DNA of 64,000 nt from an uncultured Acutalibacter sp. (GTDB lineage: Bacteria > Bacillota > Clostridia > Oscillospirales > Acutalibacteraceae). Of this stretch, positions 42,351 to 59,842 are shown in pieces; position 1 is the stretch's first letter, and each line of letters begins with the position of its first letter. The position numbers were made by a program, and so were the translations under genes. A model generated the notes under the pieces. The model ran no database searches and was not told the DNA's origin. It saw nothing but the letters and a program-made list of their open reading frames with translations. Where the stretch lies: contig CAZXLM010000002.1 of NCBI GenBank assembly GCA_964642055.1, forward strand, positions 3,793 through 67,792. The letters run 5' to 3'.

Positions 42351-42426
42351 GACTCATTAGCTCAGTTGGCAGAGCACTTGACTTTTAATCAAGGTGTCCG
42401 GGGTTCGAATCCCCGATGGGTCACCA
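42351..42426 (+). tRNA. tRNA-Lys (anticodon UUU), CCA encoded
   Basis: Acceptor stem GACTCAT/ATGGGTC, D-arm AGCTCAGTTGGCAGAGC, anticodon loop CTTTTAA, T-arm GGGGTTCGAATCCCC, 3' CCA. Confidence 0.9.
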
Positions 42427-55947: not shown

Positions 55948-57018
55948 TTATGATTCTTTCGGCGCTTCGCCTGCCGAAGGTGATGGGGAAGGAAAGAAAT
56001 GATTTTTCGGTATCTCTTCCCGATACGCCTGCGTCCGGCTCCACTCCTTGGTGGCGTCGTCCCGCCGGACCTCGCTCTGGCGGCGCTGAAGCAGGCAGCA
56101 CAAAGCGTATACGTCCACCCATATTTCGCTGGGGCCTTCCTTTTGAGATTCATCGAAAATCAGCTGCAAGCCGTAATGCAGATGGCTGACATTGATATTG
56201 TTGGTGTTTTCCTTTGTGCTGTAGCCCGTTCTTCCCACATAGCCGATGACGTCTCCCGCCATGACAGTCTGGCCCGTCTCAAGGCCTTGGGCATAGGGCC
56301 GGTTCTGCCGGAGGTGAGCGTAATAGTGATACCGTTTCCCGTCAAAGCTGCGGATCCCAATGCGCCAGCCGCCGTACTGGTTCCACCCCAAGGCCTCCAC
56401 CACCCCGGATTCCACGGCGATGACCGGCGTGCCTACGGCGGCCATCATGTCGTGGCCCAGGTGCTTTCTCTTGTAGCCGTAACTGCGGCCAGCCCCGAAA
56501 TCATCGTAATCGCTGTAGGGAAAGGTTTTGGCAATGGGGGAATATCCCTTCAGGCCGTACCGCTTTTCCCAGCCGTTTTCCGTTTCAAGCTCATACTCGC
56601 CCACCAGGTTTCCCAGCACAGCGCCGTAGGCCTCCCGGTAGTATCCGTAATACTTCATGTCCTGCGCAAGAGAAGTTATATCCTCTCCGCTTTCAACTTT
56701 TTGGGCCAGGTCGTTTAAATCCTTTCGCTGATACAGGGAAAAGTCCCCGCCGTATTTCGCGCCCAGATAGGCAAGACATTCGACCCAGTCGAGATGGGAC
56801 CGGCCGGGGTCCTCATAGGTTTCCAGGTCCAGGTCAAGAGCCGCTTCAAGCAGGCTTTCGGGAACATTGAAGTCCACCCATTTGATATAATCCTTCCGCT
56901 CGGGCTCCGCGTCTGCCGGCAGGGCCCCTTTCAGCACAGGAAAAACGGCAGCCAGCAAAAGGCCGGCTGTCAGCGCAAAAAGCAAAACTTTTTTGCGGAT
57001 CCGAAGGGTCAGAAACAT
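55948..57018 (-). CDS. M23 family metallopeptidase
   Basis: HLGHDMMAAVGTPV ... SHLHYGLQ motifs, with an N-terminal anchor. Confidence 0.8.
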   Translation of the reverse strand: MFLTLRIRKKVLLFALTAGLLLAAVFPVLKGALPADAEPERKDYIKWVDFNVPESLLEAALDLDLETYEDPGRSHLDWVECLAYLGAKYGGDFSLYQRKDLNDLAQKVESGEDITSLAQDMKYYGYYREAYGAVLGNLVGEYELETENGWEKRYGLKGYSPIAKTFPYSDYDDFGAGRSYGYKRKHLGHDMMAAVGTPVIAVESGVVEALGWNQYGGWRIGIRSFDGKRYHYYAHLRQNRPYAQGLETGQTVMAGDVIGYVGRTGYSTKENTNNINVSHLHYGLQLIFDESQKEGPSEIWVDVYALCCLLQRRQSEVRRDDATKEWSRTQAYREEIPKNHFFPSPSPSAGEAPKES

Positions 57019-57142
57019 GGAAAATCACCCGGTTTTATGCTATGCCGGGAGAAACCTTTTTTAGAACAGGCGAGCCGCGAAATCCAAACGCGGAACTGCC
57101 ACGGCGAAAGGCATGGCGCCGCGCATCTTTACCTGGGACAGC

Positions 57143-57172
57143 AAAAAAGCTCCCCTTGAAAACAAGGGGAGC
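57143..57172 (-). terminator. Intrinsic terminator after the XRE gene
   Basis: Minus-strand GCTCCCCTTG-TTTT-CAAGGGGAGC followed by TTTTTT. Confidence 0.75.
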
Positions 57173-57193
57173 CCAGCTTGTGAGCCAAAATTA

Positions 57194-57508
57194 TCAGGAA
57201 TCCTTTTTCGCATCCTGGGAACGCTTCCGCACTCTTTTGGTCTCCGGGTGCAGATCGGCTATGGCGCCCGGGACAAAAAACACATCGGGAGAGACGCCGT
57301 AAAACTGCGAAAGCCTGTACAGCGTAGAAGAGCTGGGCGACGTGGTCCCCAGCTCGTAGTAGGTGTATGCAGGGCGCGATATTCCCAGGAAATCTGCCAC
57401 GGCTTCCTGGGTCAGGCCCCGGTTCACCCGCAGGGCCTTCAGGGCCGTGCGCACCTGCAGAGACATCTCTTTTTCGGAATGTGTTTCTTTTCCCTTTGAC
57501 CTTGCCAC
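57194..57508 (-). CDS. XRE-family HTH transcriptional regulator
   Basis: LRVNRGLTQEAVADFLGISRPAYTYYELG is an HTH. GTG 57508 has a GGAGGG SD 7 nt upstream; ATG 57466 is an alternative start. There is no room for its own promoter, because RNA cassette A's terminator ends 7 nt before the SD. Confidence 0.75.
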   Translation of the reverse strand: MARSKGKETHSEKEMSLQVRTALKALRVNRGLTQEAVADFLGISRPAYTYYELGTTSPSSSTLYRLSQFYGVSPDVFFVPGAIADLHPETKRVRKRSQDAKKDS

Positions 57509-57527
57509 AGCGATTCCCTCCAAAAAC

Positions 57528-57690
57528 AAAAAAGTGCGCAGCCGAAGCCGCGCACCGAAAAACGCACGGCTCCTCTGGTTACCACGCCAAGTTTTCGATA
57601 CAACACAGGTATGCGAAAAATGAAGCCTGCATTTTTACCAAAAAGGTAAAATGCACACCTGTGTCTATCAATATTCACTTGACGTGGTAG
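57528..57690 (-). ncRNA. Structured RNA cassette A (about 163 nt), unclassified; also the only possible 5' leader of the XRE gene
   Basis: Promoter TTGAAA (57723-57718), 17-nt spacer, TGaTAAGAT (-10 at 57700-57695). Stems: P1 UACCACGUCAAGU/ACUUGGCGUGGUA, P2 ACACAGGUGUGC/GCAUACCUGUGU, P3 AUUUUACC/GGUAAAAAU. Terminator GUGCGCGGC-UUCG-GCUGCGCAC plus U6 (57555-57528). Confidence 0.7.
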
Positions 57691-57810
57691 TTTCATCTTA
57701 TCATTAATTTCACATTTTTTCAAGGGTCAAGTAATATTCCCCATAAAAATGGCCTGAGCCTACCTTCTATCGAAAACCGGGCGGCTTTTCTATGACAAAC
57801 TTCCCCAAAC

Positions 57811-57978
57811 AAAAAAGTGCGCAGCCGAAGCCACGCACCGAAAAACGCATGGCTCCATTGCTGCGACACAATTCTTTTTTGCAGTTCATTTAACGCACAA
57901 AAAAGCAGAGCCTGCATTTTTACCCATAGGGTAAAATGTGCGTTAATGAACTTAAATATACTTATTGAATTGTGCCGC
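57811..57978 (-). ncRNA. Structured RNA cassette B (about 168 nt), unclassified
   Basis: Promoter TTTACT (58013-58008), 17-nt spacer, TGgTATTGT (-10 at 57990-57985). Stems: P1 GCGGCACAAUUC/GAAUUGUGUCGC, P2 AGUUCAUUAACGCAC/GUGCGUUAAAUGAACU, P3 AUUUUACCC/GGGUAAAAAU. UUCG-loop terminator plus U6 (57838-57811). Confidence 0.7.
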
Positions 57979-58025
57979 AAATTTACAATACCATATTTGA
58001 CCTGAAAAGTAAAGCGCTCCAAAAC

Positions 58026-58191
58026 AAAAAAGTGCGCAGCCGAGGCCGCGCACCGAAAAACGCACGGCTCCATTGCTGCGACACAATCACTTTTGGCAGT
58101 TGCTATACTGTATGCAAAAGTTTGAGCCTGCATTTTTACCAAAGCAAAAATGCACACAGTATAGTATCCCACCCATATTCGATTGTGTCGC
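58026..58191 (-). ncRNA. Structured RNA cassette C (about 166 nt), unclassified
   Basis: Promoter identical to B (-35 at 58226-58221, -10 at 58203-58198). Stems: P1 GCGACACAAUC/GAUUGUGUCGC, P2 CUAUACUGUGUGC/GCAUACAGUAUAG, P3 AUUUUUGC/GUAAAAAU. Terminator hairpin plus U6 (58053-58026). Confidence 0.7.
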
Positions 58192-58245
58192 AAATTTACA
58201 ATACCATATTTGACCTGAAAAGTAAAGTATAATAAACAAAAACGC

Positions 58246-58550
58246 AAAAAATCTGTCCCAGCTTGGGACAGATTCAAAGCAGAAAGAAGTACATTCTCTT
58301 TGCGAAAAGCAGAAAAAGCTGTTATGATAGCATCGTGCAGAAATGCACAGAAAGGTCTGCCATAACGGTAGGCGGTTTGGCTACACCACCCGAAAGGGGG
58401 TGATGCCATGCGAGTTACGTTACATACCGGGCCTTTTACGGTTACGATTCTTGTAAAACGCAGAAACCGCCACTCGGCCAAGTGACGGTTTCTTTGAAAA
58501 AATAAAGAAACTCAACTGAGCCAAACCGTCTATCGGCAGACCCTTTCTTT
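58246..58550 (-). ncRNA. Structured RNA D (about 305 nt), unclassified
   Basis: Starts about 7 nt after a consensus promoter. A ~30-bp closing helix joins 58548-58519 with 58382-58349, enclosing several hairpins. It ends at the AUCUGUCCCA-AGC-UGGGACAGAU plus U-run terminator (58273-58246). No conserved or SD-preceded ORF is present. Confidence 0.65.
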
Positions 58551-58556
58551 ATTTTT

Positions 58557-58585
58557 ATTATAATGGCTGCCTTGCGATTTGTCAA
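58557..58585 (-). promoter_or_regulatory. Perfect consensus sigma-A promoter driving RNA D
   Basis: Minus strand reads TTGACA (58585-58580), an exactly 17-nt spacer, then TATAAT (58562-58557). Confidence 0.75.
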
Positions 58586-58641
58586 GCGCAGGTCTGCTGT
58601 TGAAAACCGTCCCAACTTGGGACAGATTCAAAGCGAAAAGG

Positions 58642-58673
58642 AAAAAAGCCTCCCCTTGATTTTCAAGGGGAGG
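58642..58673 (-). terminator. Intrinsic terminator of the ATP-grasp gene
   Basis: Minus-strand CCTCCCCTTG-AAAAT-CAAGGGGAGG followed by CTTTTTT. Confidence 0.75.
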
Positions 58674-58801
58674 TGGCATGGCGTAAGCCATGACGGAGGG
58701 ATTGTTTGAAACGGCAGGAACTTCTGAGCAAGCCTTAACACGTCAATCCCTCAACCTGCTATGCAGGCAGTTTCTGCCGCTCATCTTCTCCACCAGCAGG
58801 A

Positions 58802-59842
58802 CTACAGCTCCGGGATAAGCTTTTTATAGGTGGGCCATAAACCGATGCGGTCCGGCGTATGTTCAGGCTGCTGCCAGAAATCGTAGCCGGGATAATCGTT
58901 GCCCTCAATGATGGCCGGGCCGGTGGGAGTAATGGCACAGTCCCAGCCTACAAAGCGCATGCCCGGTTCTTCCAGAGCCGCTTTTTTGCAAAGCTCAATG
59001 GCCTCTTTTACATAGGGGATCCGATAACCCATCAGCTCTATGCCGGTCTCCGGGTGATGGGTCAGCGTAGTCAGGGCAGAGGTGTGCCCCACGCCGGTAA
59101 TTTCTCCGGTTTCATAATCAATCGGGCAGAACATGCCGCCGTTTTCCAGATTATCCACATATTTACCACCGGCGCCTATTTTTACCACAGCGTAAATGAG
59201 CTGCGGCTCCCAATGCTCTGGGGAACCTGTGAGCAAGGTGACGATGCGCAAAGTATTCACCGCGCTGGGATAAAGCCTGCTCATGGCTTCGTGCTGAATG
59301 ATCATTTCCCCGATCACGCCAAAGCCCTGGGCTTTGATATAGCGATACATTTCCTCCACGCTTTCAAAATCCGCCTTTTTGAGTCTCTCGATCCCCTTAC
59401 CGCTTTCCCCCACGTCCGGCTTTGCGAAAATGCGCTCCTTGTCTTTTACAAATTCGGTAAACTGTTCCAGGGTCATTTCATCTACCACTAGAAAATCCCG
59501 GCCCAGGTAGTCTCGAAAACGGGGGTTAAATTTTGTCTTGTGGTCGAATATTTCCGCCGTTTCCGGATCGTTCAGCAGAGTGATCATCTTTTTGTTGCGG
59601 ACCCGGGTCACATAAGTATCTCGATGTTTGCCGTCCATATTGTAAAATCCGAACATGACATAATCGTGGTAACCCGCGCCATATCGAACGGAACACCATA
59701 GCATATCCAAAAAAATACCGGCCCTGCTTCTGCCGGAGCGTTCCTTCGCCCTGCCAATAGAGCGAGACAATTCTTCCAGACGTACGCCACTGAGGACTCT
59801 CCCGAGGTAACCCACCCGGGAGAGCAAATTCATCTTTTTCAT
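58802..59842 (-). CDS. ATP-grasp protein of the sugar-transfer-associated (ATPgrasp_ST-like) family
   Basis: Size and blocks (FAKPDVGESGKGIE, NTLRIVT, VGWDCAITPTGPAIIEGN) match the family usually found in capsule or glycopolymer loci; assignment from memory. Confidence 0.65.
   Translation of the reverse strand: MKKMNLLSRVGYLGRVLSGVRLEELSRSIGRAKERSGRSRAGIFLDMLWCSVRYGAGYHDYVMFGFYNMDGKHRDTYVTRVRNKKMITLLNDPETAEIFDHKTKFNPRFRDYLGRDFLVVDEMTLEQFTEFVKDKERIFAKPDVGESGKGIERLKKADFESVEEMYRYIKAQGFGVIGEMIIQHEAMSRLYPSAVNTLRIVTLLTGSPEHWEPQLIYAVVKIGAGGKYVDNLENGGMFCPIDYETGEITGVGHTSALTTLTHHPETGIELMGYRIPYVKEAIELCKKAALEEPGMRFVGWDCAITPTGPAIIEGNDYPGYDFWQQPEHTPDRIGLWPTYKKLIPEL

Follow-up and report, generated by a model that had tools for sequence, protein, structure and literature searches.

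Three tandem members of an uncatalogued leader family of gut Clostridia and phages, probably inversion switches, upstream of an XRE regulator gene

The AT-rich interval between an ATP-grasp gene and an XRE regulator gene carries three tandem copies (cassettes A, B and C) of a conserved non-coding family which, judging from sequence comparison, is widespread in gut Clostridia and phages and is uncatalogued in Rfam 15. We think that the three cassettes are probably, though far from certainly, copies of a conserved phase-variation switch in which a DNA inversion is read out at the RNA level. On this model, a very short flippable segment, with a promoter on one side and a terminator on the other that both stay in place, would probably determine whether or not the next gene is transcribed.

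Layout of the island

The island occupies positions 57509-58801 of the window (the whole 64-kb stretch of DNA that was analysed). As the first-pass annotation had described, it is AT-rich and free of genes: its GC content is 0.35-0.46 over 57500-58700 compared with 0.52-0.60 in the adjoining genes, and its sole long ORF (57720-58481, 253 aa, TTG start) spans two cassettes together with their terminators. The product of this ORF is repeat-derived nonsense with no Pfam match; the ORF is mechanical, and the island contains no credible gene. Regulatory signals, by contrast with shuffled sequences, are abundant in the surrounding region (57000-59300), with 13 terminator-like sites versus 3.5 +/- 2.1 and seven promoter-like sites versus 2.2 +/- 1.5 in the shuffles. 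The four promoter-to-terminator units listed in the first-pass annotation (RNA D, followed by cassettes C, B and A) are real, in that their signals were either scanned or read directly and their predicted RNAs fold far better than shuffles (for the cassettes, z = -8.0 for A, -7.4 for B and -6.2 for C). The features, all on the minus strand, are as follows.

58802-59842, minus: ATP-grasp gene (ATPgrasp_ST), neighbour of the island
58649-58673, minus: intrinsic terminator of the ATP-grasp gene; 11-bp stem with seven GC pairs, then CUUUUUU
58603-58640, minus: first copy of a 38-nt repeat, with a palindromic hairpin at 58604-58628; 87% identical to 58249-58286
58557-58585, minus: RNA D promoter, TTGACA-17-TATAAT, 12/12 consensus matches
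58249-58550, minus: RNA D, predicted transcript of ~300 nt, promoter to terminator
58275-58249, minus: RNA D terminator, which is the second copy of the 38-nt repeat
58198-58226, minus: cassette C promoter, TTTACT-17-TGgTATTGT, read from the sequence
58181-58192, minus: cassette C left inverted repeat, TGCGACACAATC, 5' strand of stem P1, from the repeat search
58089-58180, minus: cassette C putative invertible segment, 92 nt, between the repeats
58122-58140, minus: cassette C linker-complementary element of ~18 nt, GGUAAAAAUGCAGGCUCA, inside the invertible segment
58077-58088, minus: cassette C right inverted repeat, GATTGTGTCGCA, from the repeat search
58031-58071, minus: cassette C fixed 3' module, linker plus terminator
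58053-58071, minus: cassette C linker, GGAGCCGUGCGUUUUUCGG
58031-58054, minus: cassette C terminator, CUCG loop and U6, from the signal scan
57816-58013, minus: cassette B, whole unit, 156 bits with the covariance model
57985-58013, minus: cassette B promoter
57967-57979 and 57862-57874, minus: cassette B left and right repeats
57875-57966, minus: cassette B putative invertible segment, with the linker-complementary element at 57906-57924
57838-57856 and 57816-57839, minus: cassette B linker and terminator
57533-57723, minus: cassette A, whole unit, 153 bits with the covariance model
57695-57723, minus: cassette A promoter, TTGAAA-17-TAAGAT with an upstream TG, from the signal scan
57677-57689 and 57580-57592, minus: cassette A diverged left repeat, TACCACGTCAAGT, and right repeat
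57593-57676, minus: cassette A putative invertible segment, with the linker-complementary element at 57621-57639
57555-57573 and 57533-57556, minus: cassette A linker and terminator
57194-57508, minus: XRE gene (HTH_3, E = 5.9e-17), GTG start
57174-57147, minus: the XRE gene's own terminator, from the signal scan

Each cassette has an extended -10 promoter of its own, as had been claimed. That of A was recovered by the scan, and those of B and C, whose promoter blocks are 94% identical, were read directly, the shared TTTACT-17-TGgTATTGT having 8/12 matches plus the extended -10 and falling under the scan threshold. The three cassette terminators (58054-58031, 57839-57816 and 57556-57533) are near-identical; their loops read CUCG or UUCG, and each ends in a U6 tail. 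A GGAGGG ribosome-binding site, followed by the GTG at 57508, lies directly 3' of the U-tract of cassette A, which agrees with the earlier description of the XRE gene start. The weaker terminator-like hairpin reported ahead of RNA D is present at 58628-58604 and turned out to be a copy of the RNA D terminator. At the other side, the 3' UTR of the ATP-grasp gene is also better folded than shuffles (z = -4.4).

The island is missing downstream of ATP-grasp orthologues at 61-83% identity. All Logan contigs encoding an identical ATP-grasp protein stop at its terminator (58649-58673). The XRE protein falls into a single 90% cluster with four sequences in 5.8 billion; exact-protein look-ups for the XRE and M23 proteins mostly returned no record, and two short strain contigs were recovered. 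Cassette A is near-identical in the strains represented by L046 and L051.

The family and DNA inversion between its stem arms

Sequence and covariance comparisons place A, B and C in one conserved family, as tandem paralogous copies. A covariance model built from 16 sequences scored 132-175 bits on those sequences, compared with 15-35 bits on their reverse strands, and 111-175 bits on 22 other aligned members, most of which come from Oscillospiraceae-type genomes. Loci found without the motif that had been forced into the first search pattern (L043, L044 and L047-L050) scored 111-161 bits, and 46-141 bits were obtained in 78 of the 80 IMG/VR loci picked by their repeat arms alone in an orientation-agnostic repeat scan. 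The family is conserved in Oscillospiraceae and Acutalibacteraceae as well as in more than 100 phage contigs. All members are predicted to fold as a rod of 112-133 nt, in which the loops are kept in sequence and the stems vary and covary; compensatory double changes occur in 15 of 34 predicted pairs, mostly in P1. The arms of P1 (12-14 bp) share the conserved core T-GC[C/G]ACACAAT, and in all relatives an extended -10 promoter lies at the same distance from the first arm.

Searched with gathering thresholds, Rfam 15 has no family for the island and gave nothing in the window except tRNA-Lys. Permissive scans of sub-regions likewise yielded no match above threshold. The best sub-threshold scores were 21.6 bits against a threshold of 59 for the trpB motif and 21.2 against 44.2 for DUF3800-I; the weak resemblance to the trpB motif was checked against its description and dropped. 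The rod shape also called for comparison with 6S, SRP, T-box, Y RNA, retron and bridge RNA, none of which gave a model match, and a defining motif (the T-box sequence, the central bubble) or neighbour gene (reverse transcriptase, recombinase) was missing. A small ORF starting at the invariant AUG of the apical motif was likewise rejected, its lengths and frames not being conserved. The proposal of an undescribed RNA-based system survives in so far as the island is non-coding and has no Rfam family, but not as a set of four independent RNA genes: A, B and C are paralogues, their stem arms have the character of recombination inverted repeats, and inverted relatives exist.

The family does not behave as a dispersed repeat. 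The GTDB scan yielded one pattern match per species genome, and the covariance model detected no second match, either within the 8-kb genome loci or elsewhere in the window; several paralogues are found in the window only, the other loci being single copies. The many dispersed copies per genome typical of MITE, REP or BOX-like elements were not observed, so that a known mobile or repeat element, which the first-pass annotation had named as the outcome opposed to its proposal, is not what the island is. No family match was found in the plasmid collection, and two unannotated faecal scaffolds in the phage GenBank collection are members. Synteny comparison revealed no conserved neighbours of the genome copies.

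Two independent pairs of contigs differ by an inversion delimited by the P1 arms; L125 is IMGVR_UViG_3300000357_000047 and L112 is 3300045988_101111. Between L125 and L078, a 113-bp block is 100% identical as the reverse complement within 2.3 kb of collinear sequence; between L112 and L055, 101 bp are 99% identical as the reverse complement within 1.9 kb of collinear sequence. In both pairs the inverted part between the arms measures 81-95 nt and the flanks are collinear, whereas the inner segments compared in the same direction are only 63-65% identical. We interpret the P1 arms, on this comparative basis, as the inverted repeats at which DNA inversion takes place site-specifically in the relatives. 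The core of the left repeat of cassette C is the same as that of the repeats bounding the inverted segments in L112 and L125, and the window's own three copies may invert as well. The repeats of cassette A stray from the consensus, and this cassette may be a locked copy.

A motif-based orientation census of 112 IMG/VR copies counted 106 forward, two reverse and four unclear (forward-looking by eye); energy-based calling proved noisy, misclassified L095 and L115, and was dropped. All three cassettes of the window are in the common orientation. No flipped member came to light in the subfamily to which the window's cassettes belong: a search for one in IMG/VR gave only a chance match, and the first search pattern was blind to such members. 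No recombinase motif was detected in ORFs of at least 100 aa across the 64-kb window, and no conserved recombinase within 4 kb of the phage copies; recombinases do occur near some genome copies (L001, L023, L043, L048 and L015). By analogy with RecV, the enzyme may be encoded elsewhere. Two features count against a switch: an inversion of ~90 bp is unusually short for DNA looping, and the flippable segment is itself a quasi-palindromic hairpin.

Leader position and RNA read-out

The first-pass annotation had presented the units as independent, a view that does not fit the position of A, B and C and their relatives. In 78 of the 112 phage copies, no more than 40 nt separate the terminator from a ribosome-binding site with its start codon, and a start codon is found after the T-run in 107 of them (median 33 nt); in most genome copies the start codon lies no more than ~31 nt past the modelled end. 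By position, the family behaves as a cis-acting leader. The genes downstream include typical phase-variable cargo, namely genes for BspA-LRR proteins, lipoproteins, an SLH protein, ECF sigma fusions and regulators (XRE), besides unknowns. A promoter inside the flippable segment was seen as a single 9/12 match in cassette C, and it is not conserved.

The orientation of the segment matters for its pairing with the fixed linker. Duplexes between the inner segment and the linker comprise 15-17 bp and have a mean energy of -18.0 kcal/mol as found compared with -12.6 flipped, the as-found state being better in 38 of 42 cases; in the two natural inversions the preference is turned round. For the cassettes of the window, the values as found and flipped are -19.2 and -14.5 kcal/mol (A), -21.0 and -10.5 (B) and -21.4 and -11.6 (C). 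Only the common orientation contains the 15-17 bp that complement the antiterminator strand. The rod, too, is usually ~8 kcal/mol stabler in this orientation, because G.U pairs would turn into C.A upon flipping. Bulge, linker and terminator arm show a three-way co-variation between subfamilies, reading GGCUCU / GGAGCC / GGCUUC on one side and UCUCUC / GAGGGA / UCUCUC on the other. In the antiterminator helix 90.5% of cells are paired, with double changes in three pairs (for example, A-U in cassette B versus G-C in cassettes A and C), and in the linker-to-bulge helix 96.4% are paired, although few independent lineages stand behind either helix and the shuffle control does not amount to a probability. 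The 3' module is bistable, with terminator and extended antiterminator predicted to be nearly isoenergetic; thermodynamics of nested structures predict that the terminator is equally probable whichever way the segment points. The rod is ~35-40 bp long and has the linker-complementary element at its tip, and the linker begins 3-8 nt past its base, so that pairing in cis, which we assume in the model, would need a sharply bent rod or else be replaced by an interaction in trans.

These features bear on a different reading, in which the cassettes are stand-alone trans-acting sRNA genes in several copies, the ~165-nt rod is the product, acting via its conserved exposed bulge or its linker, and inversion is rare or irrelevant. 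We regard it as unlikely. Natural inversions occur exactly at the conserved arms, a conserved antiterminator alternative would be superfluous for a plain sRNA 3' end, and in most copies the start codon comes so soon after the terminator (~40 nt at most) that no space is left for another promoter. Nor was a target found, the variable arms giving only chance matches within the window. An sRNA would nevertheless account for the strong promoter and strong terminator of every copy, for the tandem array of three paralogues (hardly sensible for a purely cis element), for a rod selected for RNA stability in the common orientation, for the convergent gene downstream of two of the 13 genome copies and for an exposed bulge complementary to the Shine-Dalgarno-like GGAG. 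It is also compatible with a dual role and not strictly exclusive of a switch.

Still less probable, in our estimate, is a riboswitch-like attenuator responding to a ligand or protein, with the rod and apical motif as sensor, an effector choosing between linker-to-bulge pairing and antiterminator, and DNA orientation playing no regular role. Leader position, a conserved 3' module with predicted mutually exclusive terminator and antiterminator, conserved loops on covarying stems, and an enrichment of envelope proteins, secreted proteins and ECF sigma factors among the downstream genes would all suit such a device. Yet the stems are so long and stable that ligand control of P1 is implausible, the downstream genes share no pathway, no Rfam riboswitch matches, and inverted variants exist; moreover, P1 is kept in sequence and not in pairing alone, which fits protein recognition of DNA repeats. 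Finally, the idea that terminators and promoters were merely duplicated in some strains without organised function, the family being a neutral or selfish repeat and its inversions assembly artefacts at the hairpin, is very improbable and largely refuted by the comparative data, for although the island is missing downstream of the 61-83% ATP-grasp orthologues, copy number or arrangement seems to differ between strains and assemblies break in the array, the family shows strong covariation and is conserved in more than 100 phage contigs besides Oscillospiraceae and Acutalibacteraceae, with a single copy per 8-kb genome locus, its junctions need reads across a 12-bp repeat that is shorter than assembler k-mers, and the two inversion cases come from different contigs or datasets and differ by SNPs.

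Proposed switch, known systems and RNA D

The phase-variation switch that we favour would be built, in order, of a fixed sigma-A extended -10 promoter, an inverted repeat of 12-14 bp, a segment of 84-92 bp, the second repeat, a fixed linker, a fixed strong terminator and, almost at once, the next gene's ribosome-binding site. The segment would be flipped by a site-specific recombinase whose gene lies elsewhere. An antiterminator could form by pairing of the linker (GGAGCC-A-UGCGUUUUUCGG) with the terminator's 5' arm and loop. While the flippable segment has the common orientation, it would supply an 18-nt complement of the linker (GGUAAAAAUGCAGGCUCU); with the linker sequestered, the terminator would form, a stable rod RNA of ~165 nt would be released and the downstream gene would be OFF. 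In the flipped orientation this complement would be lost and an extra linker-like copy gained, the antiterminator would form, and polymerase would enter the downstream gene (ON). Which orientation is ON follows from the model, and on it all three copies of the window are predicted to be OFF. Cassette A would gate the XRE regulator, while B and C, stacked upstream with their own promoters, would add graded input only if the switches below them were also ON. The fuller interpretation, that mini-invertons of 81-105 bp in gut Clostridia and phages flip an 18-nt anti-antiterminator and that three of them in series before the XRE gene make a multi-bit, heritable, graded circuit, is held tentatively, our doubts slightly outweighing our confidence. 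Through the same complementarity of 16 bp, the abundant OFF-state rod RNA may also influence sister switches in trans.

By analogy, the nearest described system is the cwpV-type switch of Clostridioides difficile. In cwpV (Cdi1), inverted by RecV, the invertible segment is situated in the 5' leader between imperfect inverted repeats and does not include the promoter, which is found upstream of it, and the leader transcript reports the orientation through intrinsic termination; the gene encodes a surface protein, is OFF in most cells and relies on a recombinase encoded elsewhere (Emerson et al. 2009, PMC2784873). The present family has in common with it the fixed promoter, inverted repeats, terminator and surface-protein cargo, with two of 112 copies flipped here; the likeness is one of layout. 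The two differ in size (21-bp repeats and a 195-bp segment in cwpV, 12-14 bp and 81-105 bp here) and in the terminator, which in the OFF state of cwpV arises at the repeat/segment junction and here is fixed outside the segment. Furthermore, the segment of the present family is a hairpin, and what flips is predicted to be the 18-nt complement of the antiterminator strand, giving a three-part logic. A tandem stack of three switches is not known to have been described for cwpV.

Among invertons, the classical promoter type (E. coli fimS, Bacteroides capsule promoters and those in PhaseFinder catalogues, PMC11892184) likewise has short inverted repeats around a small segment in the intergenic region ahead of genes for surface proteins or regulators. 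Such invertons occur in both orientations in natural populations and often depend on a recombinase in trans. They flip a promoter, however, and typically measure 150-700 bp, whereas the promoter of the present family is fixed and no conserved internal one was found. At the RNA level, S-box leaders and the antisense-RNA-controlled leaders of plasmids pT181 and pIP501 are three-part attenuators, with anti-antiterminator, antiterminator and terminator. They share with the present family mutually exclusive terminator and antiterminator and a third strand that sequesters the antiterminator strand (predicted here); this strand would be supplied or withdrawn by DNA inversion here, and by a metabolite, tRNA, ribosome or antisense RNA in the known attenuators. 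Tandem multicopy sRNA loci such as Listeria LhrC1-4 are trans-acting and work by seed pairing. They too consist of paralogous units of ~110-170 nt in one intergenic region with their own promoters and terminators but, unlike the present family, are not known to have inverted-repeat recombination sites or a gene abutting the terminator.

If the switch model is correct, it represents a compact and widespread coupling of heritable DNA inversion to transcription attenuation, of which the single-locus mechanism proposed for cwpV would be one case. Its signature (the T-GC[C/G]ACACAAT core, a hairpin of ~90 bp and a terminator) could then reveal hundreds of phase-variable genes in gut metagenomes, phage-borne lipoprotein cargo genes among them. 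A seemingly perfect small-RNA gene would be explained as a DNA switch, and combinatorial phase variation could be studied in the triple array as a natural test case. Because the segment is so short and resembles an sRNA gene, the family may escape repeat-based tools and RNA catalogues.

RNA D is predicted from its sequence to be separate from the A, B and C switches and strongly promoted, its promoter being the perfect consensus noted in the first-pass annotation. It is flanked by 26-bp palindromes. It has no Rfam match, and none of the fetched loci, phage records and IMG/VR contigs contained a homologue. This well-folded orphan is the sole remaining candidate for a stand-alone RNA in the island: its MFE is -119.6 kcal/mol (z = -7.4 versus shuffles), and its predicted core is a multi-branch structure of ~190 nt closed by GGGUCUGCC...GGCAGACC.

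Composition and signals of the island

The interval 57509-58801, flanked by a sugar-transfer ATP-grasp gene and an XRE/HTH_3 gene, has a GC content of 0.35-0.46, as against 0.52-0.60 in the genes on either side. It had been described in the first-pass annotation as an AT-rich island lacking a credible ORF and holding consecutive promoter-to-terminator units on the minus strand, and both parts of this description held. The only long ORF, a 253-codon stop-free frame (57720-58481, minus strand), spans the 3' half of RNA D together with cassettes C and B. We rejected it as a real gene, because it is a mechanical ORF crossing two cassettes, its translation is repeat-derived nonsense and a Pfam search with it returned no match. 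Frames across the terminator module are open in several relatives too. A consensus scan of the minus strand detected 13 terminator-like sites (3.5 expected) and seven promoter-like sites (2.2 expected). The TTTACT-17-TGgTATTGT promoters that belong to cassettes B and C score slightly below the threshold of the scan and were read straight from the sequence. All predicted RNAs fold strongly, with z-scores of -4.4 to -8.0 relative to shuffled sequences. The flanking genes and the signals located by the scan are as follows:

58802-59842, minus: sugar-transfer ATP-grasp gene
58673-58649, minus: ATP-grasp terminator
58585-58557, minus: perfect TTGACA-17-TATAAT promoter
58275-58249, minus: RNA D terminator
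58054-58031, 57839-57816 and 57556-57533, minus: three near-identical terminators with UUCG/CUCG loops and U6 tails
57194-57508, minus: XRE/HTH_3 gene

Rfam 15 matched neither the island nor its cassettes even at permissive settings. The sole Rfam/ARAGORN match in the 64-kb window is a tRNA-Lys (UUU) at 42351-42426.

The cassette family and its genomic settings

Cassettes A, B and C can be aligned with each other; the 16-mer GGTAAAAATGCAGGCT is invariant among them, and all three have a common 3' module of ~45 nt. Their internal stem arms differ and yet stay complementary. When one genome of each GTDB species was scanned with a sequence pattern, 13 true relatives emerged, hosted by Dysosmobacter, Faecousia, Neopoerus, Ructibacterium, Acutalibacteraceae and unnamed Oscillospiraceae. 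The alignment of 16 sequences has 34 consensus pairs; double changes that compensate each other occur in 15 of them, for the most part in P1, the basal stem. The covariance model built from this alignment scores its members at 132-175 bits and their reverse strands at just 15-35 bits; two faecal scaffolds found by plain BLAST score 161 and 142 bits, and four IMG/VR contigs obtained by loosening the search pattern score 111-123 bits. Every member is predicted to fold into a rod of 112-133 nt, composed from base to tip of P1 (13-15 bp with a conserved sequence), a 5' AAUAU loop, variable stems and an AU-rich apical hairpin, with a conserved bulge of ~13 nt on the 3' side. When IMG/VR was scanned with the P1 arms alone (TTGCSACACAA, 75-105 nt, TTGTGTSGC), at least 120 contigs matched. 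Among the matches listed, 78 of the 80 loci tested score 46-141 bits, and the major phage subfamily differs in the apical motif, linker and terminator arm. Our confidence that the cassette family is real is high.

No conserved neighbours were found for the genome copies. A co-directional gene typically begins no more than ~30 nt past their modelled end, leaving no space for a further promoter. The genes in this position encode two BspA-LRR proteins, an SLH protein, a Listeria-Bacteroides-repeat protein, lipoproteins, small membrane proteins and two ECF sigma fusions, in addition to the XRE gene of the window. Of the 112 phage copies among the matches listed, 107 are followed by an ORF of at least 60 aa with a ribosome-binding site, the start codon lying a median of 33 nt past the T-run. 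The neighbourhood in the phage loci L052-L171 is conserved and consists of a ThyX-like gene, the switch, a variable first gene, a VRR-NUC-like gene, a ~185-aa gene and a ~900-aa gene. The variable first gene belongs to one of about five unrelated families (e.g. lipoprotein phrog_29396), which makes its position resemble a cargo-gene slot. In four loci from related genomes (L001, L017, L023 and L043) homology ends within ~20 nt beyond the switch terminator, and the switch forms the border of variable DNA rich in mobile elements; all except L017 have tyrosine integrases within 3 kb.

Inversion of the inner segment and its proposed read-out

Two pairs of IMG/VR contigs differ in the orientation of the segment between the P1 arms. 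In L125 and L078 a 113-bp block is 100% identical when inverted, within 2.3 kb of collinear sequence, and in L112 and L055 the same holds for 101 bp (99% identical) within 1.9 kb. Without inversion, the identity of the inner segments is just 63-65% across the two pairs. On this comparative evidence we regard the P1 arms as recombination repeats, and take L125 and L112 to be real site-specific inversions because the 12-bp repeat is shorter than assembler k-mers and the two cases come from separate contigs or datasets. Recombination at the arms would account for the conservation of P1 in sequence, beyond pairing, for cargo of a typically phase-variable kind and for the recombinases scattered near several genome copies. 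Our confidence that the family inverts is good. Among the matches listed, 106 of the 112 complete phage copies are oriented as in the window, two are flipped and four are ambiguous by motif, the last appearing forward by eye. The search of IMG/VR revealed no flipped copy belonging to the subfamily of the window, and the first (GTDB) pattern was blind to the flipped form. The repeats of cassette A, TACCACGTCAAGT, depart from the consensus. Motif scanning of the 64-kb window revealed no candidate recombinase, and none is conserved beside the phage copies. At one genome locus (L015:1639-3727), the switch is immediately preceded by a large serine recombinase and then a 124-aa sigma-factor-like fragment, an arrangement that recalls a skin-like intervening element or could represent a candidate invertase.

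Taken by itself, the 3' module is bistable: its terminator differs by no more than a few kcal/mol from an extended antiterminator hairpin, in which the linker pairs with the terminator 5' arm and loop, and roughly half of the members favour the antiterminator. Across 23 sequences the helix of the antiterminator is 90.5% paired, with double changes in three pairs, one of them A-U in cassette B and G-C in cassettes A and C. The linker is also complementary to the invariant apical motif (core helix 96.4% paired, full duplex 15-17 bp). For 42 representatives, pairing between inner segment and linker averages -18.0 kcal/mol as found versus -12.6 kcal/mol when flipped in silico; the as-found orientation pairs better in 38 of them, and the two natural inversions show the opposite preference. 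Moreover, the bulge, linker and terminator arm vary jointly between subfamilies, being GGCUCU, GGAGCC and GGCUUC in that of the window and UCUCUC, GAGGGA and UCUCUC in the major phage subfamily. From the bistability, the complementarity, the orientation preference and the joint variation we infer a three-part attenuator whose first strand would be carried on invertible DNA. In the common orientation the linker would be sequestered, allowing the terminator to form and a short RNA to be released (OFF), whereas in the flipped orientation the antiterminator would form and permit read-through (ON). That the window copies invert and are read out in this way is proposed with moderate confidence. Nested folding predicts no effect of orientation on the terminator, as the folding of the rod is not coupled to that of the 3' module. 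The complementary element lies ~35-40 bp from the rod base, beside which the linker emerges, so that pairing would require either a sharp bend at the internal loops, if in cis, or an interaction in trans. The common orientation also stabilises the segment hairpin at the RNA level by ~8 kcal/mol; the model does not explain the reason for the hairpin form.

The nearest described system is the cwpV switch of Clostridioides difficile, in which the promoter lies outside a 195-bp segment flanked by 21-bp repeats, an intrinsic terminator forms in the OFF orientation alone and inversion is carried out in trans by the recombinase RecV (PMC2784873). The cassette family differs from it in size, in that its segment is a hairpin, in combining a fixed external terminator with a proposed invertible anti-antiterminator, and in the tandem stacking of several switches. 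Inverton surveys have reported Clostridia groups, without this mechanism (PMC5903667, PMC11892184). The family repeat core is absent from the supplementary text searched (PMC11892184), and the apical motif does not occur in the full-text literature searched.

The triple array, the XRE gene and RNA D

Cassettes C and B have promoters that are 94% identical and nearly identical 3' modules, together with unrelated internal arms. In a contig from another strain (L051:1-170), the cassette preceding A joins a C-type 3' module to a B-type downstream spacer, which suggests unequal crossing-over between cassettes or a change in copy number. A further strain contig (L046) has one SNP in the linker, which strengthens its pairing with the bulge (U.G to U-A), and another in the -35 element. 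The array edges are break points of short-read assemblies. In the Logan contigs concerned (L027-L036, L046 and L051), those with an identical ATP-grasp protein all stop ~131 nt past the stop codon, at the terminator 58649-58673, and those with the XRE gene begin within the terminator of the preceding cassette. Between the B terminator and the A promoter, the spacer contains a 19-nt stretch (57765-57783) with 84% complementarity to the A 3' arm (57585-57603). It fits that arm better than A's own 5' arm does there, so the stretch may be left over from a former arm or from a rearrangement.

The XRE gene is followed by its own terminator (57174-57147) and lacks a dedicated promoter, so its expression should require that transcription reads through cassette A; B and C would contribute only when the switches downstream of each are open too. 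The XRE protein cluster comprises just four sequences, and the island is absent downstream of ATP-grasp orthologues at 61-83% identity. Next to the nearest of these orthologues (83% identity), the intergenic region on its downstream side (L038:7060-7350) has in place of the island an unrelated promoter-to-terminator leader of ~230 nt, which precedes an ABC-F-type ATPase.

RNA D, a predicted transcript of ~300 nt from the perfect promoter, has a multi-branch core of ~190 nt (fold z = -7.4). It has no Rfam match and no relative among the fetched loci, phage records and IMG/VR contigs. Its promoter and transcript are bracketed by a 38-nt direct repeat (58249-58286 and 58603-58640; 87% identical), each copy of which holds a perfect palindrome of ~26 bp. 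This repeat could be a duplicated terminator, or the copies could be hix-like recombination sites around a 329-bp promoter-bearing segment.
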